NCBI GenBank assembly: GCA_019751125.1
Contig: JAIENU010000017.1
Span: 21,472-85,471 of the forward strand
Direction: 5' to 3'
Source of the DNA: Burkholderiales bacterium
Lineage (GTDB): Bacteria > Pseudomonadota > Gammaproteobacteria > Burkholderiales > SG8-41
Length of the DNA stretch: 64,000 nucleotides
Shown in pieces: positions 13,090 to 36,393 of this stretch. Position 1 is the first letter of the stretch, and each line of letters opens with the position of its first letter. The translations under genes and the position numbers were made by a program. The notes under the pieces were generated by a model. It searched no databases. It was given only the letters and a program-made list of their open reading frames with translations, and was not told the origin of the DNA.

Positions 13090-14354
13090 GCCGGTTGTGC
13101 CGTGGGAGCCTGTTGCAGTTTCGCGATGCGCAGCATCGCCGGGGGATGTGAGTCGTAGAAGGCCGAGTGCAGCGGATCCGGCGTCAGTGTGGCGGCATTG
13201 TCCTTGTAGAGCTTGACCAGCGCCGAGACCAGATCGTTTGCCGGCGTGTGTGTCGCGGCAAAGGCGTCGGCCTCGAACTCATGCCGGCGCGAGTAGACCG
13301 CGCCCAGGGGCTGCAGCAGCAGGGTGAAGGCCGGCACGACGATGGTGAACAGCACCAGGGCCATCGCCGTCGAGGGTTCGGAAACGCCGAGCGCCGAGTA
13401 GAACCACGGCTGCTTCATCGCGACGCCGAGCAGCCACAGGAAACCGAGGCTGGCGGCAAACATCCAGATGATGCGCTTGATCACATGCTTCAGCTTGAAG
13501 TGGCCGAGTTCGTGGGCGAGCACGGCTTCGACTTCCTGCGGCTCGAGGCGGGAGAGCAGGGTGTCGAAAAACACGATGCGCTTGGATTTGCCGAAGCCGG
13601 TGAAAAAGGCATTGCCGTGGCTGGAGCGCAGCGAGCCGTTCATCACGAACAGGCCCTTGGCCTTGAAGCCGCAGCGCTCGAGCAGACGCTCGACCCGCTC
13701 TTTCAGCGAGTCGTTTTCCAGCGGTGCAAATTTGTTGAACAGCGGCATGATCACCGTCGGCGCAATCGCCTGCACAAACAGGCTGAAGGCAATCCAGGTC
13801 ACCCAGGCGTAGAGCCACCACCATTCGCCCATACGCTCCATCAGCCACAGCACCGCGGCGACCAGCGGCAGGCCCAACGCGGCCGACAGCAGCAGGCCCT
13901 TCGCGAAGTCGATCCAGAACAGCGCCGGGGTCATCTTGTTGAAACCGAAGCGTTCCTCGATGACGAAGGTGCGGTAGAGGTTCAGCGGCAGGTCGGCCAG
14001 CGTCATCACCAGCATCACCGCTGCGATCAGCGCGAGGCCGCGGACGATGCCGGGCTCGAACCAGGTGGCGGTGGTTTCATGCAGCGCCTGCAGGCCGCCG
14101 CCGAAGGTCAGCGCCAGCGCGATCAGCAGTTCGAGGCCGATGCCGAGCATCGAAAAGCGCGTCTTGGCGCCGGTGTAGTCGGCGGCCTTCTGGTGCGCTT
14201 CGAGGGTGATCACGCCGGCAAACTGCGCCGGCACCGCGTCGCGGTGGGCGGCGACATGGGTGGCGTGGCGGACGGCCAGCCACAGGCGCAGTGCGCTGCC
14301 CAGCAGCAGGGCGATGATGAACAGGATGGCGAACAGTTGGGCGGGGTTTTGCAT
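13086..14354 (-). CDS. M48 family (Ste24/HtpX-like) membrane metalloprotease
   Basis: [10 protein letters not shown] zinc motif and multiple TM helices. Start set at MQNPAQLF (ATG at 14354). The longer track ORF runs into the orn promoter region. Confidence 0.88.
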
Positions 14355-14469
14355 GGCGGTTCGGTGGATTGTGCGGATATGTACGGATAGGTGCAGGTGC
14401 GGGGGTCCGGACTGTGACAAAATGCGGGACCAAAAATTCAAGGGATCCATGCGGATTCCGAAAATCATT

Positions 14470-20069: not shown

Positions 20070-21140
20070 TCACGCGGTGAGTGCCGGGTAGTCGGTGTAG
20101 CCGACCGGTCCCGGTGAGTAGAAGGTGGCCGGATTCGCCGCGTTGAGCGGTGCACCGCGACGGAAACGTTCCGGCAGATCGGGGTTGGCGAGGAAGGGCA
20201 CGCCGAAGGCGACAGCATCAACCTGACCTTCAGCGATGACTTTCTGTGCTTCGTCCGCGCCATAACCCATGTTGGTGATCAGCACACCCTTGAAGTTCGC
20301 CCGCGCCGGCGTCAGCACGTCGCCCTTCTGCTGCTGGAAAAAATCACCGCGCATCACGTGCAGGTAGGCGAGGTTGTAGCGGTTGAGCATCTGCGCCACT
20401 GCGGCGATCAACGCGGCCGGATCACTGTCGATCATGCTGTTGTAGCTGTTCAGCGGTGACAGGCGCACGCCGACACGATCGCTGCCCCAGACTTCGCACA
20501 CCGCCTCGACCACTTCGCAGAGCAGCCGCGCGCGGTTTTCGATGGGGCCGCCGTAGGGGCCGCTGCGCTTGTTGGCGCCGTCTCGCAGGAATTCGTCGAG
20601 CAGGTAGCCGTTGGCGCCATGTACTTCAACGCCGTCGAAACCGGCGGCTTTGGCGTTTTCCGCAGCTTTGCGGAAGCCGGCGACAATGCCCGGCAGTTCG
20701 TCGTCGCGCAGTTCGCGCGGCAGGACATAGGGTTTTTTGCCTTCCGGCGTGTGTACTTCGTCGCCGGTGATCGGAATCGCGCTCGGCGCCACCGGTTGCG
20801 CGCCATTGTTGAGCAGCGGGTGGCAGGCGCGGCCGCCGTGCCAGATCTGCAGGAAGATGCGGCCGCCTTTGGCGTGCACCGCGTCGGTGACTTTTTTCCA
20901 GCCGGCCACCTGGGCCTCAGAGTAGATGCCGGGTTCCATCCAGAACGAGGAATTGCCTTCGATCGCCATCGTCGCTTCGGCGATGATCAGGCCGGCGCTG
21001 GCACGCTGCGCATAGTATTCGGCCATGATGGCGGTGGGGACATGGTCGGCGTCGGCGCGGCAGCGCGTCAGCGGCGCCATGAAAATGCGGTTGGGCGCGG
21101 TGATGGCGCCGAAACGGATCGGACTGTGCAGGTCGGGCAT
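20070..21140 (-). CDS. Old Yellow Enzyme family NADH:flavin oxidoreductase (N-ethylmaleimide reductase-like)
   Basis: 356 aa. N-terminus PNRIFMAPLTRCRA, HGANGYLLDEFL, and the C-terminal pattern of OYE alkene reductases. Confidence 0.9.
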   Translation of the reverse strand: MPDLHSPIRFGAITAPNRIFMAPLTRCRADADHVPTAIMAEYYAQRASAGLIIAEATMAIEGNSSFWMEPGIYSEAQVAGWKKVTDAVHAKGGRIFLQIWHGGRACHPLLNNGAQPVAPSAIPITGDEVHTPEGKKPYVLPRELRDDELPGIVAGFRKAAENAKAAGFDGVEVHGANGYLLDEFLRDGANKRSGPYGGPIENRARLLCEVVEAVCEVWGSDRVGVRLSPLNSYNSMIDSDPAALIAAVAQMLNRYNLAYLHVMRGDFFQQQKGDVLTPARANFKGVLITNMGYGADEAQKVIAEGQVDAVAFGVPFLANPDLPERFRRGAPLNAANPATFYSPGPVGYTDYPALTA

Positions 21141-22661: not shown

Positions 22662-24104
22662 ATGCGGTCCTTGCTTTTATCCTTGTCTGCATCGAGGTTT
22701 GAGCCATTGCGCCGGCTGCTGCTGGCCACGCTGCTGTCCGCGGTGGCAGTTGCGGCCGGTGGTTGTGCCGGCACCGCTACGCAGTCCGCGGGCACAGCGC
22801 CCAGGAACATCATCATCCTGTTTGCCGACGGCACGGCGCCGGTGCAATGGGATTTCGGCAAACGCTCCAGCGCGATCCTGCGCGGGCAGACTTTCGCCAC
22901 CACTGACGTGGTATTCCGTGAGGGTTCGCTGGGCCTGCTGTCGACGCAGCCCCATGGACCCTATGTCACCGACTCCGCGGCTGCGGCCTCGGCGATGTCC
23001 ACCGGCCACAAGGTCGAGAACGGCGCGGTATCGATCACGCCGGACGGCAAGGCGCAGACCACGCTGATGCAGGCGGCGAAGGCCGCGGGCAAGCGCATCG
23101 GGCTGGTGACCTCGGCGACGGTGTATGACGCGACACCCGCCGCGTTTTCGATCAATGCCCGGTCACGGCGTGATTCGCAGCCGCTGGTCGATCAGTACGC
23201 GACCCTGCGCCCGGATGTGCTGATGGGCGGCGGCGCCGATTATTTCCTGCCGTCGACAGCACCCGGCGGCAAGCGCAAGGACGGCCGCGACGTGATCGCC
23301 GAATTCCGTGCCGGCGGCCATGCCATCGCGCGCAACAGCGCGGAACTGAAGGCGGCAACCGGCCCGCGGCTGCTCGGACTGTTCGCGCTCGAGGACATGG
23401 ATTTCGAGCTCGACCGTGATCCTGCCGTCGAGCCATCGACCGCGGAAATGACGGCAGCGGCGCTGCGCGCGCTGGCGCAGGACAGCCCGAAAGGTTTTGT
23501 GCTGCTGGTGGAAAACGAGAACACCGACACCGCCAGCCACGCCAATGACGCGCCGTCGCTGATGCGCGCGCTGTGGGCTTTTGATGACGCGGTGAAGGTG
23601 GCGCTGGAATTCCAGAGACGCAACCCGGATACCCTGGTCATCGTTACCGGCGACCACGAGACCGGCGGCTTTTCACCAACCTATGCGCAGAAGGATCTGG
23701 GCTCGGCCGGCAGCGGTAACCGCTTCTATGCCGGCGACGAGCAGTTCCGTATGCTCGAACGCGTCAGCATGTCGCTGGGCATGTTGCGCGAGAAACTCGG
23801 ACGCAAGCCCGATGCCGCGGTTCTCGATGCTTTGCTGGAAAAGCACTTTCCCGGATTCCGTTTTGATGACGACCTGCGCGCGCTGCTGCTCGGTGGCAAG
23901 CCGCTGGACCGCAATTTCACCTATATCCCGCACAACCTCGTCGGACGCATGATTTCGCGCCAGACCGGTTTTTACTGGGGCACTTCAGGCCACACCTCGG
24001 AGCCGGTCGCGGTTGGTGCCATCGGTCCCGGCGCTGAACTGTTCCGCGGTTATCAGGACAACACCGATTTCGGAAAACATCTGCACCGCCTGATCGGACG
24101 CTGA
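22662..24104 (+). CDS. alkaline phosphatase (PhoA family), probable lipoprotein
   Basis: Lipobox AAGGC. Active-site region DSAAAASAMSTGHK, and metal-ligand regions DTASHAND and GDHETGG. Confidence 0.88.
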   Translation: MRSLLLSLSASRFEPLRRLLLATLLSAVAVAAGGCAGTATQSAGTAPRNIIILFADGTAPVQWDFGKRSSAILRGQTFATTDVVFREGSLGLLSTQPHGPYVTDSAAAASAMSTGHKVENGAVSITPDGKAQTTLMQAAKAAGKRIGLVTSATVYDATPAAFSINARSRRDSQPLVDQYATLRPDVLMGGGADYFLPSTAPGGKRKDGRDVIAEFRAGGHAIARNSAELKAATGPRLLGLFALEDMDFELDRDPAVEPSTAEMTAAALRALAQDSPKGFVLLVENENTDTASHANDAPSLMRALWAFDDAVKVALEFQRRNPDTLVIVTGDHETGGFSPTYAQKDLGSAGSGNRFYAGDEQFRMLERVSMSLGMLREKLGRKPDAAVLDALLEKHFPGFRFDDDLRALLLGGKPLDRNFTYIPHNLVGRMISRQTGFYWGTSGHTSEPVAVGAIGPGAELFRGYQDNTDFGKHLHRLIGR

Positions 24105-24129
24105 GCGCGACCGGGCCGCAGTTCCGGTT

Positions 24130-24501
24130 TTAATACTGCTCGAAGTATTCGACCGGACGCACTTCAACCGCCCAGCCGACGTGGCCGCCGATCAGTGCGG
24201 CCGGGTGTTTGGCGGCGATGCGCAGTGCGTCGTCCATGTCATCGGCTTCGATGATGAAAAAGCCGCCGACCTGTTCCTTGGTTTCGGCAAAGGGGCCGTC
24301 GGTGATTGAAGGCTTGCCGCTGCCCGGCCGCAGCGTGCGGGTGGCGTCAAGTTCACCAAGCGAGGCCTGCAGACGCAGCGCGCCGCTGGCGCGCAGGGCT
24401 GCGTCATGCGCGGGACACTGGCTGACCAGGGCCTGCAGTGCGTCCGGCGGCAGCGCGGCGAATTTTTCGGTGTCGTAATAGGCGAGGCAGAGGAATTTCA
24501 T
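24130..24501 (-). CDS. YciI/DGPF-domain protein (paralogue 4)
   Basis: MKFLCLAYYD... TDGPFAETKEQVGGFFIIEADDMDDALRIAAKHP. Confidence 0.85.
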   Translation of the reverse strand: MKFLCLAYYDTEKFAALPPDALQALVSQCPAHDAALRASGALRLQASLGELDATRTLRPGSGKPSITDGPFAETKEQVGGFFIIEADDMDDALRIAAKHPAALIGGHVGWAVEVRPVEYFEQY

Positions 24502-24534
24502 CGCGATTCTTTCAATCTGTTTAGTCGCTGTGAT

Positions 24535-24792
24535 TCAGCCGCCGGAGAGGGCCTGGGCGATGATGACTTCATCGCTGTCCCGGAGCGCACGCGCGAGGTC
24601 ATGCTCCTGTGTGCCGTTGATGAAGATGCGGATGTGGCGGCGGATGCGGCCCTGCTCATCGACCATGCGGAAGCGGATGCCGGGATAACGGCTTTCGAGG
24701 TCGTCGAGCAGCAGGGCCAGTGTTGCGCCCTGCGCTTCGGCCTGGCCGGACTCGGTGTAGGAGCGCAGCGCGCTGGGGATCATGACTTGCAT
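24535..24792 (-). CDS. MoaD/ThiS-family ubiquitin-like small protein with C-terminal GG
   Basis: 85 aa, MQVMIPSALRSYT ... IFINGTQ ... VIIAQALSGG*. Beta-grasp-like length and a terminal Gly-Gly. Confidence 0.75.
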   Translation of the reverse strand: MQVMIPSALRSYTESGQAEAQGATLALLLDDLESRYPGIRFRMVDEQGRIRRHIRIFINGTQEHDLARALRDSDEVIIAQALSGG

Positions 24793-24811
24793 GAGATCAC
24801 CCGCATGACCT

Positions 24812-25993
24812 TCATGCGAAGACCGCGGTTTCGACGGCGTAGATTTCCGGCAGGTTGCGCACGATGCAGCTCCAGCGTTGGCCTGCTTTTTTGTCGGTGC
24901 TGCGGCTTGCCCACAGTTCGCCGCTGGTGGTGCCGAAGTAGAGACCGACATCGTCCTGCGTGTCACAGCACATCGCCTGGCGTTTTACGGTCCACCAGGC
25001 CTGCTGCCTGGGCATGCCGGCATCGAGGCGCTGCCAGGTCTTGCCGCCGTTCCTGGTGCCGTAAACCGCGGGTTTGCCACCGGGGCTGGTGCGCGGCCAC
25101 ACGCCGCTGCCGTCCATCGGGAACACCCAGGCACGGTTGTCGTCGCGCGGATGCACCACCAGCGGGAAGCCGATGTCGCCGACGGATTTGGGCATGGCTT
25201 TGCCGATACGCACCCAGGTATCCGAAGGACGGTCGAGGCGGTAGATGCCGCAGTGATTCTGCTGGTAGATGCGGTCGGGGTTGGACGGGCAGATGCGCAG
25301 GCAGTGCGGGTCGTGGAAGGTCGGCTGCAGCGGATCAAAGCCGAAGCCTTCGACGACATCGAGGCCCTTGATCAGCGTTTTCCAGCTCTGGCCGCCGTCG
25401 GTGGATTCGTGCACACCGCCGCCGGACATGCCGATGTAGAGGTGGCGCGCATCACGCGGGTCGACAATGATCGAGTGCAGTTTGGGGCCGTCGGGTGTGC
25501 CGTCCTGCGCCGTGCCCATCCACTCGCGGAATTTCGGGTCGTCGTTGATGATCGAGTACGGTTTCCAGTTCACGCCGCCGTCGGTGGAGCGGAACAGGCC
25601 CTGCGGGCTGGTGCCGGCATACCAGACATCCGGTTCGGAAGCCGGGCCGGGCGTGAGCCAGAAGGTGTGGTCCACCGAACGTCCGCTGCCGTCGGCGGCC
25701 TTGGCGAAGGCCGGTGGCTGTGCAGCCTCCTTCCAGTTGCGGCCGCGGTCGGTGGAACGGAACACCGTCGGCCCGAGGTGGCCGGTCTTGGCGGCGGCAA
25801 GCAGCGTGCGGCCGTCGCGCGGATCGAGCACCAGGTGGCTGATGACATGGCCGAGGAAATGCGGGCCGTCGATTTTCCAGGTCTTGCGCTGCGCATCGCC
25901 ATGGATCAGCCAGGCGCCCTTGCGGGTGGCGACCAGCACCGTGGTGTTGTGCGGCTTGCGTGCGGCGGTTTTCTTCTTTCGGACTGCGGGCAT
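24812..25993 (-). CDS. BNR/Asp-box repeat beta-propeller protein (sialidase-like fold)
   Basis: 393 aa. Asp-boxes STDRGRNW, STDGGVNW, STDGGQSW, and a degenerate TRNGGKTW. Start at 25993 has a gaggag RBS. Confidence 0.8.
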   Translation of the reverse strand: MPAVRKKKTAARKPHNTTVLVATRKGAWLIHGDAQRKTWKIDGPHFLGHVISHLVLDPRDGRTLLAAAKTGHLGPTVFRSTDRGRNWKEAAQPPAFAKAADGSGRSVDHTFWLTPGPASEPDVWYAGTSPQGLFRSTDGGVNWKPYSIINDDPKFREWMGTAQDGTPDGPKLHSIIVDPRDARHLYIGMSGGGVHESTDGGQSWKTLIKGLDVVEGFGFDPLQPTFHDPHCLRICPSNPDRIYQQNHCGIYRLDRPSDTWVRIGKAMPKSVGDIGFPLVVHPRDDNRAWVFPMDGSGVWPRTSPGGKPAVYGTRNGGKTWQRLDAGMPRQQAWWTVKRQAMCCDTQDDVGLYFGTTSGELWASRSTDKKAGQRWSCIVRNLPEIYAVETAVFA

Positions 25994-26018
25994 GGTGTTC
26001 TCCTCGGTTTGTGTCGGG

Positions 26019-26378
26019 TCAGGCCTGGACCAATACCTTGAAGCCGCCCCAGAACATGCGTTTGGCATCGAAGGGCATGTTGCCGGGGTCGCACATCGCG
26101 GCCATGCGCGGATCCTTGAACACCCTGGCGTTGACGCGGTCGCGGTGGGCGCGGGACTTGTAGACGATGTACGCAAAGACCACGGTTTCGTCTTTTTTCA
26201 GCTTCACGCTTTGCGGGAAGGACGTGAGCTTTCCGGGCTTCACGTCATCGGCGACACACTCGACATAGTCCAGCGCGCCGTGCTCACGCCATATTTTTCC
26301 GGCCTTGCGCGCGATCTTGCGATAGTCCTCGACCTTCTTTTTTGGTACCGGCAGCACGAATCCATCGACATAGGGCAT
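26019..26378 (-). CDS. DUF1428 family protein
   Basis: MPYVDGFVLPVPKKKVEDYRKIARKAGKIWREHGAL... matches the characteristic DUF1428 N-terminus. Confidence 0.8.
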   Translation of the reverse strand: MPYVDGFVLPVPKKKVEDYRKIARKAGKIWREHGALDYVECVADDVKPGKLTSFPQSVKLKKDETVVFAYIVYKSRAHRDRVNARVFKDPRMAAMCDPGNMPFDAKRMFWGGFKVLVQA

Positions 26379-26411
26379 GGTGTTCTCCTTGATGGGTTTG
26401 AATCGGACCGG

Positions 26412-26780
26412 TCAGGCGCCGGCCTTGCGTTGTTGTTCCGCGGCTACGGTTTCCCGGATCGGCCGCACCGGGCGCACCTCGATGCTGCCGACCGTTGCCG
26501 GCGGAATGCCGGCGGCGATGCGGATGGCCTCATCGAGGTCGGCGGCCTCGATCATGTAAAAACCGGCAAGCTGTTCCTTGGTTTCGGCAAAGGGGCCGTC
26601 GGTGACGGCGACCTTGCCGTCGCGGATGCGCACCGTGGTCGCGGTCTGCACCGGCTGGAGCGCTTCCGAGGCAATACATTTGCCGCTGGCGCGGATCGAG
26701 GCGTCGTAAGCAACGCAGTCCTCGTCGGCCAGTTCCGGCAGGCGTTTTTCGTCGAGATAGACCAGGCAGAGGTATTTCAT
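26412..26780 (-). CDS. YciI/DGPF-domain protein (paralogue 3)
   Basis: MKYLCLVYLDE... TDGPFAETKEQLAGFYMIEAADLDEAIRIAAGIP. Confidence 0.85.
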   Translation of the reverse strand: MKYLCLVYLDEKRLPELADEDCVAYDASIRASGKCIASEALQPVQTATTVRIRDGKVAVTDGPFAETKEQLAGFYMIEAADLDEAIRIAAGIPPATVGSIEVRPVRPIRETVAAEQQRKAGA

Positions 26781-26798
26781 GACGGGCTCTGAGGGGGG

Positions 26799-27284
26799 TT
26801 AACCGCGCCGCGCCGCTTCGATCACGGCGATGTCAATTTTATGCATGGTCATCATCGCATCAAAGGCGCGCTTGGCGGCGGCGGGGTCGGGATCGATGAT
26901 CGCTTCGGTGAGGGCCAGCGGTGTGATCTGCCAAGACAAGCCCCATTTATCCTTGCACCAGCCGCAGGCGCTCTCGCTGCCGCCGTTGCCGACGATCGCG
27001 TTCCAGTAGCGGTCTGTTTCGGCCTGGTCAGCGGTTGCGACCTGAAACGAGAACGCCTCGCTGTGTTTGAATGCCGGTCCGCCGTTGAGCCCGAGGCAGG
27101 GGATGCCCATGACGGTGAACAGGACCGTCAGCACATCACCCTGCCTGCCGGACGGAAAGTCCCCCGGTGCACGATGCACGGCGTCCACGGAAGAGTTTGG
27201 AAAGGTTTCCGCGTAAAACCGCGCCGCGTTCTCGGCGTCTCCGTCAAACCAGAGGCAAATCGTGTTCTTTGCCGTGTTTTTCAT
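26799..27284 (-). CDS. VOC superfamily protein (PhnB / 3-demethylubiquinone methyltransferase-like domain)
   Basis: ICLWFDGDAENAARFYAETFP ... CGWCKDKWGLSWQI is typical of this VOC subfamily. Confidence 0.8.
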   Translation of the reverse strand: MKNTAKNTICLWFDGDAENAARFYAETFPNSSVDAVHRAPGDFPSGRQGDVLTVLFTVMGIPCLGLNGGPAFKHSEAFSFQVATADQAETDRYWNAIVGNGGSESACGWCKDKWGLSWQITPLALTEAIIDPDPAAAKRAFDAMMTMHKIDIAVIEAARRG

Positions 27285-27296
27285 CAGCCATCTCCG

Positions 27297-27692
27297 TCAT
27301 TGATCGGTTACGTGCCTGAAACCGGCATCAAGCACTTTTTGAGTGGCGGCATCCTCGGCGACCGGGCGCACTTCAACACAGCCCTTCGCCGCTCCGGGAA
27401 TGCGCGCGGCAATCCGTATCGCCTCGTTGAGGTCGCGCGCCTCGATCAGGAAGTAACCGCCGAGTTGTTCCTTGGTTTCGACCCATGGCCCGTCGGTGGC
27501 CGTGATCCTGCCGTTCCTGAGGCGGACCGTGGTGGCTTCCGCGGGAGGCAGCAGCCTGTTGCAGCTGATGAAGTGGCCGCTACGGGAGATGTCGGCGGTG
27601 AATTTGACGTACTCGTCGTAATGTCCGGCCGCTTCTTCGGGGGACATCTGTTCCATGACTTTTTCGGCGCAGATCAGGCACAGGAATTTCAT
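27297..27692 (-). CDS. YciI/DGPF-domain protein (paralogue 2)
   Basis: MKFLCLICAEK... TDGPWVETKEQLGGYFLIEARDLNEAIRIAARIP. Confidence 0.85.
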   Translation of the reverse strand: MKFLCLICAEKVMEQMSPEEAAGHYDEYVKFTADISRSGHFISCNRLLPPAEATTVRLRNGRITATDGPWVETKEQLGGYFLIEARDLNEAIRIAARIPGAAKGCVEVRPVAEDAATQKVLDAGFRHVTDQ

Positions 27693-27705
27693 CGGATTCT
27701 CCGTT

Positions 27706-28167
27706 TCAGCCGCAGGCTTTTTTGAAGTTGGCCTCGATTTCGGCCGGGGTCAGATCCTGCTGGTGGGTGGCGATCGACCAGCTGTGGCCCCAGGGATCGG
27801 TGAGTACGCCGTAACGGTCGCCCCAGAACATGTCGGCGGGCGGCATCACTGCAGTGGCACCCGCAGCGACCGCGCGAGCGTAGAAGGCGTCGGTGTCCGG
27901 CACATAAAGATGGATGGTTACCGGTGACCCTTTCAGCGTTTTCGGGCTGATTGCGCCGCAGTGCGGCATTTCGTCGGTGAACATCACCGGCGAACCGGCA
28001 ATGATCAGCATCGCATGGATCAGTTTGCCGTCGGGACCGGGCAGTCTGATGGTTTCCACCGCGTCAAAGGCCTTCTTGTAGAACTCGAGGGCTTCAACAG
28101 CGCCGGCGCAGACCAGATGTGGCGTGACAGTGTGCATGCCTGCGGGCAGATAGTGCGGGGTGCTCAT
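27706..28167 (-). CDS. VOC family (glyoxalase/bleomycin-resistance fold, PhnB-like) protein
   Basis: TPHLVCAGAVEALEFYKKAF ... MFWGDRYGVLTDPWGHSWSI. Confidence 0.82.
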   Translation of the reverse strand: MSTPHYLPAGMHTVTPHLVCAGAVEALEFYKKAFDAVETIRLPGPDGKLIHAMLIIAGSPVMFTDEMPHCGAISPKTLKGSPVTIHLYVPDTDAFYARAVAAGATAVMPPADMFWGDRYGVLTDPWGHSWSIATHQQDLTPAEIEANFKKACG

Positions 28168-28595
28168 TTTTGATCTCCAATACCGATGGCGCGGAATTTT
28201 TCGATGGTCGGGCTGGGCTCGAAATCCTCGAGCTCGAAGAATTCGCGGACTTCGATTTCAGCGTCGAGGCCCCTGCCCGCGGGGTTCGGGAAACGCTTGG
28301 TCCATTCGATCGCTTCCTGCAGCGATTTGACCTTGATGATGGTGTAGCCGGCGATCAGCTCCTTGGTTTCGGCGAAAGGGCCGTCGATATAAGTTCGCTT
28401 TTCACCCGACTGTTTGTCGCCCGAATAACGGATGCGCCAGCCTTTTGAGCTGGGTTTCAGGCCCGAGCCGTCCACCAGCACGCCGGCTTTGGCGAGTTCG
28501 GCGTGGTAGCTCTGCATGTCCTGCAGCAGTTCTTCGGTGGGCATCACCCCGGCCTCGGAGTCTGCTGTCGCTTTGACGATGATCATATAGCGCAT
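28164..28595 (-). CDS. YciI family protein (paralogue 1, first structural gene after the sigma factor)
   Basis: MRYMIIVKATADSEAG ... IDGPFAETKELIAGYTIIKVKSLQEAIEWTKRFP. It overlaps the next gene by 4 nt. Confidence 0.85.
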   Translation of the reverse strand: MRYMIIVKATADSEAGVMPTEELLQDMQSYHAELAKAGVLVDGSGLKPSSKGWRIRYSGDKQSGEKRTYIDGPFAETKELIAGYTIIKVKSLQEAIEWTKRFPNPAGRGLDAEIEVREFFELEDFEPSPTIEKFRAIGIGDQK

Positions 28596-28598
28596 TTT

Positions 28599-28633
28599 AT
28601 AACCCTTTGTTTTTAAACATAATTTTATTGACC
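28599..28633 (+). repeat. AT-rich intergenic repeat, copy D (variant)
   Basis: ataaccctttgtttttaaacataattttattgacc. It starts 4 nt from the YciI start codon (CAT at 28593-28595). Confidence 0.6.
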
Positions 28634-28666
28634 ATCGATTTCGCTATCGATGGTGCTCATACACTG

Positions 28667-28693
28667 GTCGAATGGCGGAACGCCATTTCGACA
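28667..28693 (-). promoter_or_regulatory. candidate ECF-type promoter TGTCGA-N17-CGAC upstream of the YciI/VOC array
   Basis: The minus strand reads ggggacTGTCGAaatggcgttccgccattCGACcagtg. It lies 23 nt downstream of the sigma stop and about 72 nt upstream of the YciI start. The spacer is itself a near-perfect palindrome. Confidence 0.4.
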
Positions 28694-28715
28694 GTCCCCG
28701 AAAAATTTTTTCTGC

Positions 28716-29957
28716 TCAGCCGGCCAGTGCGGCGAGTCGGCGTTCGAGGAAGCGGCGTTCGGGTTCCTGGCGGGTCAGTGCCAGCGCGCGTTGGTAGGCG
28801 CTGCGCGCTTCGTCCCGGCGCCCGAGGCGGCGGCAGAAATCGGCGCGTGCGGCATGTGCCAGCCGGTACCCGGCGAGTTCGCCGCGCTCGAGCAGCGCAT
28901 CGACCAAAACGAGCCCGGCTTCGGGGCCGTCGCGCATCGCCACCGCCACCGCGCGGTTCAGTTCGACCACCGGCGAGGGTTCGATGCGCAGCAGCAGGTC
29001 GTAGAGCCCGGTGATCTGTGCCCAGTCGGTATCAGCGGCCGTCGCAGCTTCCGCATGCACTGCGGAAATTGCCGCCTGCAGGGCATAGGGGCCGACGCGG
29101 CGCGTGGCGAGTGCGCGTTCAACCAGCGCGGTGCCTTCGGTGATCAGGCTGCGATCCCAGAGGCTGCGGTCCTGGTCTTCGAGCAGCACCAGGTCGCCAT
29201 CGGCATTGCTGCGCGCGGCGCGCCGTGATTCATGCAACAGCATCAGCGCGAGCAGCGCCATGGCCTCCGGTTCCGGCAGCAGCCCGGCCAGCAGGCGCGC
29301 GAGGCGAATGGCCTCGCCGGACAAGTCGTGGCGGGTCAGCGTGGCGCCGGAGGAGGCGGCGTAACCTTCATTGAACACCAGGTAGATCACGCGCAGCACG
29401 CTGTCCAGGCGCTGCGGCAGCTCGGCGGGTTCCGGCACCTGGTACGGGATCTTCGCGTCACGGATCTTGTTCTTGGCACGCACGATGCGCTGCGCCAGCG
29501 TTGGCGCGCTGCTGAGGAAGGCGCGGGCGATTTCCTCGGTGGTAAGTCCGCAGACTTCGCGCAGCGTCAGCGCGACCTGGGCATCCGGGTGCAGCGCGGG
29601 GTGGCAGCAGGTGAAGATCAGGCGCAGCCGGTCGTCGCCGATGTCCTCGGCTTCGGGGTCTTCCGGCGCAGGGATATTTTCCGCGGCTTCATCGTCCAGC
29701 GCTTCGATGCGTGACTGGCGGCGCATCTGGTCGATGGCCTTGAAGCGTCCCGCGGATACCAGCCAGGCCCGCGGGTTGGCGGGAATGCCCTCGCGCGGCC
29801 ACTGTTCCAGTGCGGCACGGAAGGCTTCGTGCAGCGCCTCTTCGGCGGCATCAAAATCACCCAGCAGGCGCACCAGCGTCGCGAACACGCGGCGTGATTC
29901 GGCCCGGTAGACCGCATCTACCGTCGCGTGCATTCCAGTATCCCGTTGCTCTTCCAT
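28716..29957 (-). CDS. ECF sigma factor with long C-terminal helical (TPR-like) extension, ECF42-like
   Basis: Sigma-2 region (AEEALHEAFRAALEQWPREGIPANPRAWLVSAGRFKAIDQMRRQ) and sigma-4 region (LTLREVCGLTTEEIARAFLSSAPTLAQRIVRAKNKI). The C-terminal extension is about 230 aa (GPYALQAAISAVHAEA ... ERRFLERRLAALAG). Start is MEEQRD (29957) or MHATVD (29933). Confidence 0.85.
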   Translation of the reverse strand: MEEQRDTGMHATVDAVYRAESRRVFATLVRLLGDFDAAEEALHEAFRAALEQWPREGIPANPRAWLVSAGRFKAIDQMRRQSRIEALDDEAAENIPAPEDPEAEDIGDDRLRLIFTCCHPALHPDAQVALTLREVCGLTTEEIARAFLSSAPTLAQRIVRAKNKIRDAKIPYQVPEPAELPQRLDSVLRVIYLVFNEGYAASSGATLTRHDLSGEAIRLARLLAGLLPEPEAMALLALMLLHESRRAARSNADGDLVLLEDQDRSLWDRSLITEGTALVERALATRRVGPYALQAAISAVHAEAATAADTDWAQITGLYDLLLRIEPSPVVELNRAVAVAMRDGPEAGLVLVDALLERGELAGYRLAHAARADFCRRLGRRDEARSAYQRALALTRQEPERRFLERRLAALAG

Positions 29958-30012
29958 CAGACTGCCACGGCATGCGGGCCACTGGGCTTTACCGGGCGCA
30001 CTGCCGTCGTTG

Positions 30013-30984
30013 CTATTCCGGCTTGATGCCGGCTTCGGCAACGACTTTTCGCCAGCGCGCGAGTTCGCTGCGGATCATCTCGGCCATTTCCTGCGGCGTG
30101 GTTGAAGTCGGCACCATGCCGATGCTCTCCAGATGCTTGACCACGCCGGGATCCTCGACCGCGCGTTTCATCTCGGCATTGATTTTGCGCACCACATGCG
30201 CCGGCGTCCCGGCCGGTCCGAGGAAGCCATACCAGGTGGTGTTGTTGAAGCCGGGATAGGTTTCGGCAATGGCCGGGATGTCGGGCAGCGCTTTCAGCCG
30301 CGTCGGATGGCCGATCGCAATGGCGCGTGCCTTGCCGGTGGCCATGTGCGGCTGCCAGGGTGCGGCACCGCCGAAGATCGCCTGCACGCGGCCGGCGAGC
30401 AGGTCGGCGGTAGCGGCGCCACCACCTTTGTACGGCACATGGGTGAATTTTGCGCCGGTCAGCGAGGTCAGCAATTCCATGCCAAGGTGGTTGGGCGTGC
30501 CGGTGCCGGGTGATGCGAAATTGATCTTGCCCGGCTGTGCCTTGGCGAGATCCACCAGTTCACGCACGTTTTTCGCCGGCACCGAAGGATGCACCACGAT
30601 CAGGAAGGGCACATAGACGCCAACACCGATCGGCGTGAAGTCCTTCACCGGGTCGTAGGCGAGTTTGCTGCCGAAGGCGGCGCTGACCACCAGTCCGCCC
30701 GAGGTGCCCAGCACCAGGGTGTAGCCGTCGGGTGTGGCCTTGGCGGCGAGGCCGTGGCCCAGCGTCGAGCCCGCGCCGGGACGGTTGTCGATGACGAACG
30801 TGGTATTCAGTTTTTCAGCGAACCAGGTGCTGAATGCGCGTGCCGTCGGATCCGTGGTGCCGCCGGGCGGATAGGGCACGATGATGCGCACCGGCTTGGT
30901 CGGGTAGGCGGGCTCGGCGGCCAGTGCCGCGGGCGTGGTTGCGGCAAGCGTAAGGGCAGATGCGCAAAGCAGTTGGCGCAGCAT
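30013..30984 (-). CDS. Bug family (TctC-like) tripartite tricarboxylate transporter substrate-binding protein
   Basis: Signal peptide MLRQLLCASALTLAATTPAALA, then YPTKPVRIIVPYPPGGTTD, the hallmark of Bug proteins. Confidence 0.9.
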   Translation of the reverse strand: MLRQLLCASALTLAATTPAALAAEPAYPTKPVRIIVPYPPGGTTDPTARAFSTWFAEKLNTTFVIDNRPGAGSTLGHGLAAKATPDGYTLVLGTSGGLVVSAAFGSKLAYDPVKDFTPIGVGVYVPFLIVVHPSVPAKNVRELVDLAKAQPGKINFASPGTGTPNHLGMELLTSLTGAKFTHVPYKGGGAATADLLAGRVQAIFGGAAPWQPHMATGKARAIAIGHPTRLKALPDIPAIAETYPGFNNTTWYGFLGPAGTPAHVVRKINAEMKRAVEDPGVVKHLESIGMVPTSTTPQEMAEMIRSELARWRKVVAEAGIKPE

Positions 30985-31074
30985 GGGTACTCCTCCTGGG
31001 TCCTTGTTTATGAGTGATTGTGGACCAGCGATCAATTCTAGGAGCAAAGCGCTGTTTAGCCAATCTCGCCGCGG

Positions 31075-32013
31075 TCAAATCCTGCCGTGTGGTTGTTTTT
31101 TCCCGGATCGTTTGCCTGTCCTCGCGGCGGACAGCTTGCGCAGGCGTTCAACGAACGCTTCGCCAAACGGGCGCAGCACATGATTGCGGTGCAGGCTGAC
31201 CAGCGACATCGAAGCGGGAAACAGATGTGATGAGGGCACGATCTGTATGTCCCTGTCCTTTCTCGGGTCGACAGCCATGGTCTGCAGCACGGCCACCCCT
31301 ACGCCGGCCGCGACATAGGATTTGATGACGTTGGCGTCGCTGCCGCGAACGGCGATGCGGGGTTTCAGGCCCAGCCGCTGGAATTCATGCTGTACGACCC
31401 AGCCGGAGTTGTAGATTTCATCATAGGCAACCAGCGGGTAACGCGACAGTTCGCGCAGGCTGATCCGCCTTGATTTCAGCAGCGGGTGCCCCCGCGGCAC
31501 CACTACGCAGCGTTCGAAGGCAAAGGCCTCGAAGGTAACGATGTCACGCGGTATGGCCGAGGGCAATGTCGATACGCCGATATCGACCTCCCCTTCAATC
31601 ACCCATTGCAGGATGTCCTTGGGGCTGCCCTGGCGCAGCACGATCTCGACCCCGGGATGATCCGCCAGAAAGGCGCGGATCACGCCGACCAGGGAATAGC
31701 TGGCGTGGATATGCGTCGTGCCGATGCGCAGGGTGCCTTCGACCCCGGTTTGCAGGCTGTCCCGCAGCCCGGCAATGGTGCGGGTGTCATGCACCACGCG
31801 CCGTGCGAGCTCCACTGCCCGGCGTCCGGCGTCGGTAAGGTCGACCAGCCGGTTTCCGGTGCGCACGAACAGATCGGTGCCGATTTCTGATTCGAGTGCG
31901 CGTGCCAATTTGCTGACGCCGGGTTGTGTGGTGTGCAAGGCCCTGGCCGTGAGTGAAACGCTGAAATCGTGGTCGACCAGGGCGATCAGGTAACGCAGCT
32001 GCTTGAGTGTCAT
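31075..32013 (-). CDS. LysR family transcriptional regulator (CysB/Cbl-like N-terminus)
   Basis: MTLKQLRYLIALVDHDFSVSLTARALHTTQPGVSKLARALESEIG wHTH, followed by a LysR substrate-binding domain. Confidence 0.9.
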   Translation of the reverse strand: MTLKQLRYLIALVDHDFSVSLTARALHTTQPGVSKLARALESEIGTDLFVRTGNRLVDLTDAGRRAVELARRVVHDTRTIAGLRDSLQTGVEGTLRIGTTHIHASYSLVGVIRAFLADHPGVEIVLRQGSPKDILQWVIEGEVDIGVSTLPSAIPRDIVTFEAFAFERCVVVPRGHPLLKSRRISLRELSRYPLVAYDEIYNSGWVVQHEFQRLGLKPRIAVRGSDANVIKSYVAAGVGVAVLQTMAVDPRKDRDIQIVPSSHLFPASMSLVSLHRNHVLRPFGEAFVERLRKLSAARTGKRSGKKQPHGRI

Positions 32014-35319: not shown

Positions 35320-36393
35320 CTATTTTCCGAGCCGCGGCGCGTTCTGCAGGAACTCCGCGAGTTCCTTTTTGTAGAACCTGGAGTTGCCGGTGGTGCCGTG
35401 TCCGCGGGTGTCGGCACTTTGAGGTATCAGCAGGTGGCGGCCGTTTTTCAGGCGCTTCATCGCGTCTTCCATCATCCCCAGTTCCGGCGGATTGCGTTCG
35501 TCATCGGCGGCGTTGATCGCCAGCACTGCGGCCTGCACCCTGCCCAGCAGCGGCAGCGGGTTGTAGTCGCGCGACGATTCCCACTGCAGTAGCACGTCGT
35601 TGGCATCGCCGCGGAAAGGTGCTGCAAGGCGCTTGGCGAGCACGGCCTCGGCCTTGTCGGCATCGGGGCCGTCGTTGTAGAGGGCAATGTTGCCGCCATT
35701 GGTGGCTACCGCGAAGTAGGTCAGCAGCCGTGTCATGTTGCGCGGCTGCTGCTGGTAGTCGCCGTTGTTCCATTCCGGGTCGTTGCGGATCGAGTCGGCG
35801 AGCAGCTTGCGCAGCATCCAGTTGCGGCCGGACATCGCGCCGGGCTGGCAGGCCATCGGCACCGCCGCATCCATCATCTGCGGGTATTTGGTCGCCCACA
35901 CCCAGACCTGCATGCCGCCCATGGAATTGCCCATCACCAGCCGCAGGTGGCGGATGCCGAGGCCCTCGGTGACCAGGCGGTACTGGGCCTGCACCATGTC
36001 GTCGTAGTTGTATTTCGGAAATTTCATGCGCAGGCCGCTGCTCGAGGGGCGTGTCGAACGGCCGCTGCCCAGCGCGTCGGGCAGGATGATGAAATATTTG
36101 GTGGCGTCGAGCGGCTGGCCCGGGCCGAACAGCTCATCGGCAAAGTTGCGCGTCAGGAAGTTGGCGCCGGAGCCCGCAGTGCCGTGCAGCAGCAGCACCG
36201 GTTCGCCTTTCGGGTCGCCGATGGTACGGTAGTGCAGGGTGACCTCGGGCATGACTTCGCCGGTATGGAACCGGAAATGCTTCGCCACCCAGCTGCCTTC
36301 TTTCGGTTCCGGGTAGTTTGCGGCTTGTGCCGGACCGGCGGCGCAGCTTATGGCGATGACGAATAAAGCCGCTATACAGCGAATGCCTCGCAT
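35320..36393 (-). CDS. secreted alpha/beta-fold hydrolase (homoserine O-acetyltransferase-like fold)
   Basis: Signal peptide, HGTAGSG, and nucleophile elbow GNSMGG. Confidence 0.8.
   Translation of the reverse strand: MRGIRCIAALFVIAISCAAGPAQAANYPEPKEGSWVAKHFRFHTGEVMPEVTLHYRTIGDPKGEPVLLLHGTAGSGANFLTRNFADELFGPGQPLDATKYFIILPDALGSGRSTRPSSSGLRMKFPKYNYDDMVQAQYRLVTEGLGIRHLRLVMGNSMGGMQVWVWATKYPQMMDAAVPMACQPGAMSGRNWMLRKLLADSIRNDPEWNNGDYQQQPRNMTRLLTYFAVATNGGNIALYNDGPDADKAEAVLAKRLAAPFRGDANDVLLQWESSRDYNPLPLLGRVQAAVLAINAADDERNPPELGMMEDAMKRLKNGRHLLIPQSADTRGHGTTGNSRFYKKELAEFLQNAPRLGK

Follow-up and report, generated by a model that had tools for sequence, protein, structure and literature searches.

The present analysis addresses a stretch of DNA of 64,000 nt from a Burkholderiales bacterium (contig JAIENU010000017.1, positions 21,472 to 85,471; this whole stretch is referred to as the window, with its first nucleotide counted as position 1) and, in particular, ten genes verified by means of the open reading frame (ORF) list and Pfam on its minus strand between positions 24130 and 29957. 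This locus most probably represents an alternative sigma factor of ECF42, one of the groups of extracytoplasmic function (ECF) sigma factors, and the operon that constitutes its main target. The gene encoding the sigma factor (28716–29957) is followed by a predicted ECF42-dependent promoter (28667–28693, minus strand) and nine tightly packed genes encoding four YCII/DGPF paralogues, a VOC protein, a PhnB-like protein, a DUF1428 protein, an Asp-box (BNR) beta-propeller, and a ubiquitin-like protein (Ubl) of the ThiS/MoaD fold. An earlier interpretation of the window, derived from the nucleotide sequence without database searches (the sequence-only reading), had described ten co-directional minus-strand ORFs separated by gaps ranging from −4 to approximately 120 nt. 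Both the coordinates and the gaps were reproduced, and its domain calls were upheld by Pfam for all ten ORFs.

ECF42 is among the largest ECF groups, comprising more than 10,000 sequences (bioRxiv 10.1101/2019.12.11.873521), and its members have been studied in four genera. The consulted reviews from 2021–2022 name neither the inducing signal of the group nor the biochemical role of its YCII/DGPF targets. The locus described here offers a compact model consisting of one promoter and nine genes. Its regulatory wiring is well supported, and as the biochemical role of its products, we infer the neutralization of toxic small molecules. The ECF42 group as such is known; this study adds a definition of its promoter, the target families that recur across phyla, the conservation of the propeller/Ubl pair, and mobile cassettes from clinical isolates. 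The locus itself, being an unusually large yet otherwise typical example of ECF42, would not surprise a specialist.

The sigma factor and its predicted ECF42-type promoter

The core of the sigma factor was recognized by Pfam as Sigma70_r2 (5.8e-10, aa 17–83) and Sigma70_r4_2 (2e-8, aa 114–165), no other sigma regions being detected in the protein by this search, and is followed by a DUF6596 domain (8.5e-39, aa 183–282) and a TPR_2 match (1.6e-5, TPR at aa 367–402). The database gene call begins at M9 (alternative start at position 29933) and comprises 405 aa. In the AlphaFold2 model of the protein (mean predicted local distance difference test (pLDDT) score of 80, predicted template modeling (pTM) score of 0.70), approximately 240 aa beyond sigma-4 were predicted to be all-helical, with block-mean pLDDT values mostly ranging between 80 and 97 from residue 200 onwards, which agrees with the helical C-terminal extension of about 230 aa previously proposed to follow the regions sigma-2 and sigma-4. 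Foldseek related the N-terminal part of the model to the ECF sigma factors SigE, SigL, SigH, and AlgU, and the tail to TPR superhelices as best matches, including peptide-binding TPR domains such as PEX5. The claim that no anti-sigma gene is located nearby also held, as Pfam detected an anti-sigma domain in none of the 16 genes scanned (the ten array genes and six flanking genes), a search that an unrecognized type of anti-sigma factor would escape.

The features expected of an ECF42 member were taken from reviews and from the study on Sinorhizobium meliloti, DUF6596 being the closest proxy for a profile hidden Markov model (HMM) of the group. Every testable feature was found at the locus, namely, the sigma-2/sigma-4 core, a TPR-bearing extension of approximately 240 aa, the lack of an anti-sigma gene, neighboring YCII genes, and the group promoter, which is in accordance with the assignment to ECF42 that the sequence-only reading had deduced from the protein architecture and the DGPF neighbors. 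Membership in the group is supported by domains, neighborhood, and promoter; matches of the sigma factor in NCBIfam were generic for ECF proteins and below the cut-offs, and eight of the ten array proteins could not be assigned to a specific family by means of this database. The core with a TPR extension of approximately 200 aa, the lack of an anti-sigma factor, and an adjoining YCII/DGPF gene are shared with S. meliloti RpoE10, Streptomyces venezuelae SVEN_0747/4377/7131, Pseudomonas putida ECF-10, and the Xanthomonas campestris member. For the members from S. venezuelae and X. campestris, the C-terminal extension was reported to be essential for activity (PMC8999054, PMC9023288, bioRxiv 10.1101/2019.12.11.873521). 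By analogy with these studied proteins, the sigma factor of the window would operate without an anti-sigma partner, and its activity would be set by its own DUF6596/TPR extension.

The sigma factor was found to be 65–85% identical to homologues on contigs labelled Cyanobacteria, Planctomycetes, Acidobacteriota, Chloroflexi, Bacteroidota, Nitrospirota, and Pseudomonas. For ECF sigma factors, identity values this high across phyla are unusual; they suggest strong constraint combined with horizontal transfer. Furthermore, residues C117-C118-H119 (motif FTCCHP, encoded at approximately 29609–29601), C136 (29552–29550), and H301 (29057–29055) are invariant across 81 sigma sequences, and paralogues of 34–52% identity retain only C118 and H301 of these. 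A metal or redox site at the CCHP...C residues of sigma-4 is possible.

The candidate promoter, TGTCGA-N17-CGAC, is located at 28693–28667 inside the 120-nt gap between the stop codon of the sigma gene and YCII paralogue 1, and an A/T tract lies directly upstream of it (28701–28712). Promoters of S. meliloti RpoE10, which was classed as ECF42, were mapped by rapid amplification of cDNA ends (5'-RACE) or RNA-seq as TGTCGG-N17-CGTC (PMC6180224). The window promoter features the identical 17-nt spacer and a matching core, and the elements common to known ECF42 promoters, i.e., TGTCG(A/G) as −35 region, a spacer of 17 nt, and CG(A/T)C as −10 region, are all represented in it.

Since the bare core motif is too frequent in 64 kb (two matches compared to 0.74 expected, which is not significant by itself), the promoter was tested in relatives. 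For this, a sample of 80 loci anchored on the sigma factor (L001–L080) was used, of which the 79 loci with at least 150 nt beyond the sigma match entered the motif count. In 44 of the 79 loci, representing many phyla, the motif was found no more than 400 nt past the stop codon of the sigma gene, compared to a background rate of 0.077 per kb. In 17 further loci, it lies on the other side of the sigma gene, approximately 450 nt from the start codon, in front of a YciI gene encoded ahead of the sigma factor. A YCII gene also precedes the sigma gene in S. meliloti, whereas the sigma gene precedes the promoter in the window. A position weight matrix (PWM) built from 106 sites in related loci resulted in the extended ECF42 promoter consensus TGTCGA(T/A)TT-N9-CC(G)WWCGAC(T)A, which delimits target families across phyla and represents a lead in its own right. 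With a PWM score of 32.9 bits versus 12.6 bits for the runner-up across the whole window, the predicted promoter is the sole strong match in 64 kb. The other core-motif matches, at 36052 (plus strand) and 4091 (minus strand), both lie within ORFs, achieved low PWM scores, and were dismissed. In the intergenic alignment over relatives, the promoter and the upstream A/T tract are conserved, and the leader diverges.

A perfect 8-bp hairpin (CCATCGAT-N6-ATCGATGG) in the predicted leader at approximately 28651–28630 was rejected as a regulatory element, being kept at 95% sigma identity and lost at 87%. The promoter spacer (28671–28687) contains a perfect palindrome, AATGGCG-TTC-CGCCATT. Many related promoters share its G+C-rich flanks (GGCG...CGCC), and the palindrome may be part of the promoter motif rather than a separate operator.

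A transcript starting near position 28660 had been postulated by the sequence-only reading, and the predicted promoter is positioned to fit such a start. The holoenzyme would recognize this single promoter and, starting from near 28660, transcribe the nine packed genes as one message of approximately 4.5 kb. A second ECF42-type promoter was not found within the array, and therefore the nine genes, if sigma-responsive, would respond as one operon. As the sigma gene is located upstream of the promoter, it would not be auto-induced from it. No sigma-70-like site was found in the 55 nt that separate the sigma gene from the TctC gene (30013–30984), and such a site is present upstream of the latter (31063–31035); expression of the sigma gene probably accompanies or immediately follows that of the TctC gene.

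The nine-gene array and its conservation in relatives

Downstream of the sigma gene, the intergenic gaps amount to 120, −4, 13, 12, 18, 33, 25, 19, and 33 nt, and all genes are encoded on the minus strand. The array begins with YCII/DGPF paralogue 1 (28164–28595, 143 aa, Pfam YCII 1.9e-17), the stop codon of which is overlapped by 4 nt by the start of the gene encoding the VOC protein (27706–28167, 153 aa, glyoxalase/bleomycin-resistance fold, Pfam Glyoxalase 2.5e-12). These are followed by YCII/DGPF paralogue 2, a DGPW variant (27297–27692, 131 aa, Pfam YCII 2e-19), the PhnB-like VOC-fold protein (PF06983, 26799–27284, 161 aa, Pfam 1e-48), YCII/DGPF paralogue 3 (26412–26780, 122 aa, Pfam YCII 9e-24), the DUF1428 protein (26019–26378, 119 aa, Pfam 8.4e-43), the propeller (24812–25993, 393 aa, Pfam BNR 33.2 bits), and the Ubl (24535–24792, 85 aa, Pfam ThiS 1.6e-7). 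The last gene encodes YCII/DGPF paralogue 4 (24130–24501, 123 aa, Pfam YCII 5.8e-17) and is convergent with an alkaline-phosphatase gene (22662–24104). The longest ORFs are over-extended for the propeller (start at 26176) and for the MoaD-like protein (start at 24966); starts at 25993 and 24792, respectively, were preferred, as a Shine-Dalgarno sequence is present and they match the gene calls of homologues or relatives. Upstream, the co-directional run reaches into the TctC gene and a LysR gene (31075–32013), both of which were placed outside the unit because the flanks differ in a relative with 87% sigma identity.

In this relative (L163) and in a closer one (L161, 95% sigma identity), the order sigma-YCII-VOC-YCII-YCII-DUF1428-propeller-ThiS-YCII is kept, with the VOC protein and YCII paralogue 4 at the same positions as in the window. 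The flanks of L163 differ from those of the window, and the boundaries of the array are identical. In distant relatives, the order is reshuffled and the families recur (YCII, VOC, PhnB-like, DUF1428, and BNR), five to nine of the array families of the window being present in L001, L002, L006, L019, L020, and L044. Conservation of the gene order beyond this strain, on which the sequence-only reading had made its proposal depend, was thus confirmed at 95% and 87% sigma identity except for the PhnB-like gene, and is lost in distant relatives.

The previous description of the array as unusually large also needs to be qualified. Most promoter matches in related loci precede at most three genes, and the longest downstream chain obtained with a crude ORF caller comprises nine, which makes the array of the window one of the larger ones; however, it is not unique, since L006, L020, and L044 are comparable. 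The array is therefore a large version of the typical regulon of its clade and not an odd one. At least one same-strand YCII gene was found in 49 of 56 loci with complete flanks and at least two in 25 of them; PhnB-like genes were present in 11, propeller genes in 10, VOC genes in 7, and DUF1428 genes in 6 of these loci. A census of downstream families was obtained by applying Pfam to 140 ORFs after ECF42-type promoters from the first 74 sigma-anchored loci with promoter matches. YCII was represented by 59 ORFs, followed by Glyoxalase (12), PF06983 (11), AHSA1/SRPBCC (6), RibD_C, SnoaL_2, and BNR (5 each), DoxX_2 (4), and DUF1428 (3). For comparison, glyoxalase-like proteins and a hydrophobic-ligand-binding protein are among the targets of RpoE10 (PMC6180224). 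The operon of the window differs in that its nine genes include DUF1428 and the propeller/Ubl pair, neither of which is mentioned in the published accounts of ECF42 that were found.

The propeller/ubiquitin-like pair

Over nearly its full length, the propeller matches PDB entry 3B7F (Ralstonia eutropha YP_299179.1; E = 5.9e-157), a seven-bladed propeller with five Asp-boxes, the function of which is listed as not known (PMC2716378). The deposited name of this entry, 'glycosyl hydrolase, BNR repeat', is an annotation only. In view of this listing, an NCBIfam match to F510_1955 below its cut-off (70 bits, cut-off 175), and further weak matches to the non-enzymatic assembly factor Ycf48, the protein was not filed as a glycosidase. 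Its N-terminus shows no obvious signal peptide by eye, which argues against a secreted glycosidase. In total, the propeller family comprises 630 clusters at E ≤ 1e-30.

The Ubl exceeded the cut-off of Pfam ThiS (32.2 bits versus 22.5) and matched NCBIfam SAMP1 below the cut-off (4.8e-10). Its best PDB matches are 4N6E_B (ThiS/MoaD family, 1.6e-10) and 3DWG_C (Mycobacterium tuberculosis cfp10A, 1.2e-9), both of which we take to be CysO sulfur carriers. The protein ends with ALSGG immediately before the stop codon and, accordingly, has the fold and the exact Gly-Gly end of the adenylated, thiocarboxylated carriers known from the CysO-CysM, ThiS, and MoaD systems. In contrast to these, it has an Asp-box propeller as its fixed partner and not a pyridoxal-phosphate enzyme, MoaE, or ThiG.

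In all 13 propeller-bearing loci of the sigma-anchored sample, a gene of approximately 90 codons encoding a Gly-Gly-terminated protein is located next after the propeller gene. These loci include a propeller subfamily that is only 30–35% identical to the protein of the window and was found on contigs labelled Chloroflexia, Anaerolineae, and Planctomycetes. An independent metagenome scan was anchored on the propeller only and resulted in 80 loci (L081–L160), 67 of them with enough downstream sequence. A MoaD-like gene follows the propeller gene in 63 of these 67 loci, and the product has a Gly-Gly terminus in 60 of the 63. The sequence-only reading had listed the BNR propeller and the MoaD-like protein as two extra genes of the array; both calls hold, but the genes are not incidental and form a tightly conserved pair. 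Judging from its distribution, this pair is an autonomous two-gene module that has repeatedly been recruited by ECF42 regulons. Among 55 co-directional neighbors of the pair, Pfam detected neither an E1-like or JAMM gene nor a third conserved partner, the families found being scattered ones; by analogy with sulfur carriers, the E1-like activation of the Ubl could be provided by a housekeeping enzyme encoded elsewhere in the genome. Literature searches did not retrieve a published description of the propeller/Ubl (BNR-MoaD) pairing or a functional study on PA1351/PA1349 or 3B7F.

The propeller and its CysO-like partner might constitute a previously undescribed two-component enzyme system, in which the C-terminus of the Ubl would be activated as a thiocarboxylate or conjugate and the propeller would use the Ubl to modify or neutralize a small molecule, the system being repeatedly recruited by ECF42 regulons in the response to chemical stress. 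This proposal is speculative and, in our estimation, doubtful. If true, it would provide the first biochemical handle on the function of an ECF42 regulon. The strict conservation of the pair, which is also encoded in the PA1351-type locus of Pseudomonas aeruginosa, where genetics is easy, represents a further lead.

Several points weigh against an ECF42 regulon comprising all nine genes and acting in detoxification. Transcription from 28660 through all nine genes is a prediction, and internal sigma-70 promoters are possible, a weak match to their consensus being present inside the array (26863–26836). Deletions of ECF42 genes in S. venezuelae caused no morphological phenotype. To our knowledge, no substrate has been described for any YCII/DGPF, DUF1428, PhnB-like, or 3B7F-type protein. 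The PhnB-like gene (26799–27284) is absent from L161 and L163, which are otherwise collinear with the window, and hence is dispensable there; the difference represents either a recent gain in the window or a loss in the relatives. Moreover, only about 14 of the 80 propeller-anchored loci show YCII, sigma, or ECF42-promoter features, the other neighbors being heterogeneous, and the propeller/Ubl pair may therefore have a function independent of ECF42.

Taken together, these last findings would fit a composite array, in which only the promoter-proximal genes belong to the sigma factor and the propeller/Ubl pair, perhaps along with the PhnB-like gene, represents independent modules. The PA1351-like locus is in line with this, since the two adjacent genes lack a dedicated ECF42 promoter there. 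However, the pair is again found next to ECF42 sigma genes in 13 loci from several phyla and with two propeller subfamilies only 30–35% identical to each other, DUF1428 or YCII genes often flank it in these sigma-anchored loci, and the gaps of 25 and 19 nt in the window offer neither the space nor a signal for a separate promoter. A composite origin of the array is thus possible, although a single ECF42-controlled operon appears clearly more probable to us.

Possible functions of the YCII/DGPF proteins and related ECF42 systems

All four YCII paralogues exceed the Pfam cut-off and carry the motif DGP(F/W)xETKE, which had been noticed in the sequence-only reading and was recovered in each of them by the paralogue alignment. 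Their mutual identity of 26–49% indicates old, diversified copies and not recent duplicates. Orthologues of YCII paralogue 1 in related loci reach 56–86% identity. Structures related to the products are available in the PDB for YCII paralogue 3 (1S7I, P. aeruginosa PA1349, 4.3e-34), the DUF1428 protein (2OKQ, YbaA, 2.2e-29), and the PhnB-like protein (1U69, 1.4e-82).

The nine products appear to be small soluble proteins of ligand-binding or enzyme type, including the presumably cytosolic propeller and its Gly-Gly-terminated, CysO-like partner. Most likely, they would bind or chemically neutralize a class of toxic small molecules, for example, electrophiles, aromatics resembling quinones, or compounds similar to antibiotics. 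A function of the array as a detoxification regulon, as suggested by the sequence-only reading, is plausible from its gene content and has indirect support.

Alternatively, one or more of the YCII/DGPF proteins could have a regulatory role and turn the sigma factor on or off by binding to its TPR tail, so that the operon would partly constitute a feedback loop. This was proposed in a review, as YCII genes always adjoin ECF42 genes and some ECF sigma factors carry a fused YCII domain (PMC8999054). It would be compatible with the 17 loci in which YciI directly precedes the sigma gene behind an ECF42 promoter, resembling a sigma/anti-sigma pair, and with the Foldseek matches of the sigma tail, which include PEX5 as an example of TPR domains that bind peptides. 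On the other hand, the divergence of the four paralogues, each of which has its own orthologues, fits diversified effectors better, YCII is by far the commonest family behind ECF42 promoters (59 of 140 ORFs), and the YCII member TftG is a true enzyme, as cited in PMC10304115. We therefore consider a regulatory role of these proteins unlikely and favor effectors under the control of the sigma factor. A chance run of same-strand genes without common regulation is highly implausible, since, although the run extends into the unrelated TctC and LysR genes and a shared strand alone means little, the same families recur after the same promoter motif across phyla, the nine genes are spaced by −4 to 33 nt, and the array boundaries are the same in L163 despite differing flanks.

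Relatives of the locus were also detected on plasmids of clinical isolates. By means of tblastn, a sigma factor with 73% identity to that of the window was found on pMKPA34-2 from P. aeruginosa (L164, NZ_MH547561.1) and pE47_001 from Acinetobacter baumannii (L165, NZ_CP042557.1), which share an identical cassette with identical protein accessions. The cassette encodes the sigma factor, two YciI proteins, an NTF2-like protein, four VOC proteins, a MATE efflux pump, and a methyltransferase, followed by recombinase and IS481 genes, and contains three ECF42-type promoters. It differs from the window in its four VOC, NTF2-like, MATE, and methyltransferase genes and in the lack of DUF1428 and the propeller/Ubl pair. 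The location of these clinical cassettes beside a MATE efflux pump is a lead that points to a defence against toxic compounds, and the link between an efflux pump and bleomycin-resistance folds provides indirect support for a role of the regulon against toxic small molecules.

Furthermore, a sigma factor 70% identical to that of the window is encoded on pZYPA1927 from P. aeruginosa (L166, NZ_CP133752.1, 20000–40000). The region concerned, on a replicon annotated as a plasmid, is presumably equivalent to the chromosomal region PA1349–PA1361 including PmpM, the record itself being without those locus tags. Like the window, this PA1351-type locus features the sigma factor, YciI, VOC, and the pair of a MoaD/ThiS gene and an 'exo-alpha-sialidase' (BNR) gene within 4 kb. 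In contrast to the window, it is organized in divergent units, the Ubl gene is located before the propeller gene, and genes encoding a thioredoxin-family protein and an MFS transporter are present. ECF42-type promoters were found before YciI-VOC-MFS and before YciI-thioredoxin-sigma, and none before the propeller/Ubl pair.

A search against Rfam detected no RNA family within positions 23900–31200. Regarding the surroundings of the array, the six flanking genes were assigned by Pfam to TctC, LysR, a glycosyl-hydrolase-like protein, alkaline phosphatase, a beta-lactamase-fold protein, and an OYE-family flavoenzyme. The OYE gene of the window (20070–21140) is located 3 kb beyond the array, past the alkaline-phosphatase and beta-lactamase-fold genes. 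In L163, a gene encoding an OYE-family flavin oxidoreductase (13354–14424) directly follows the array on the same strand.

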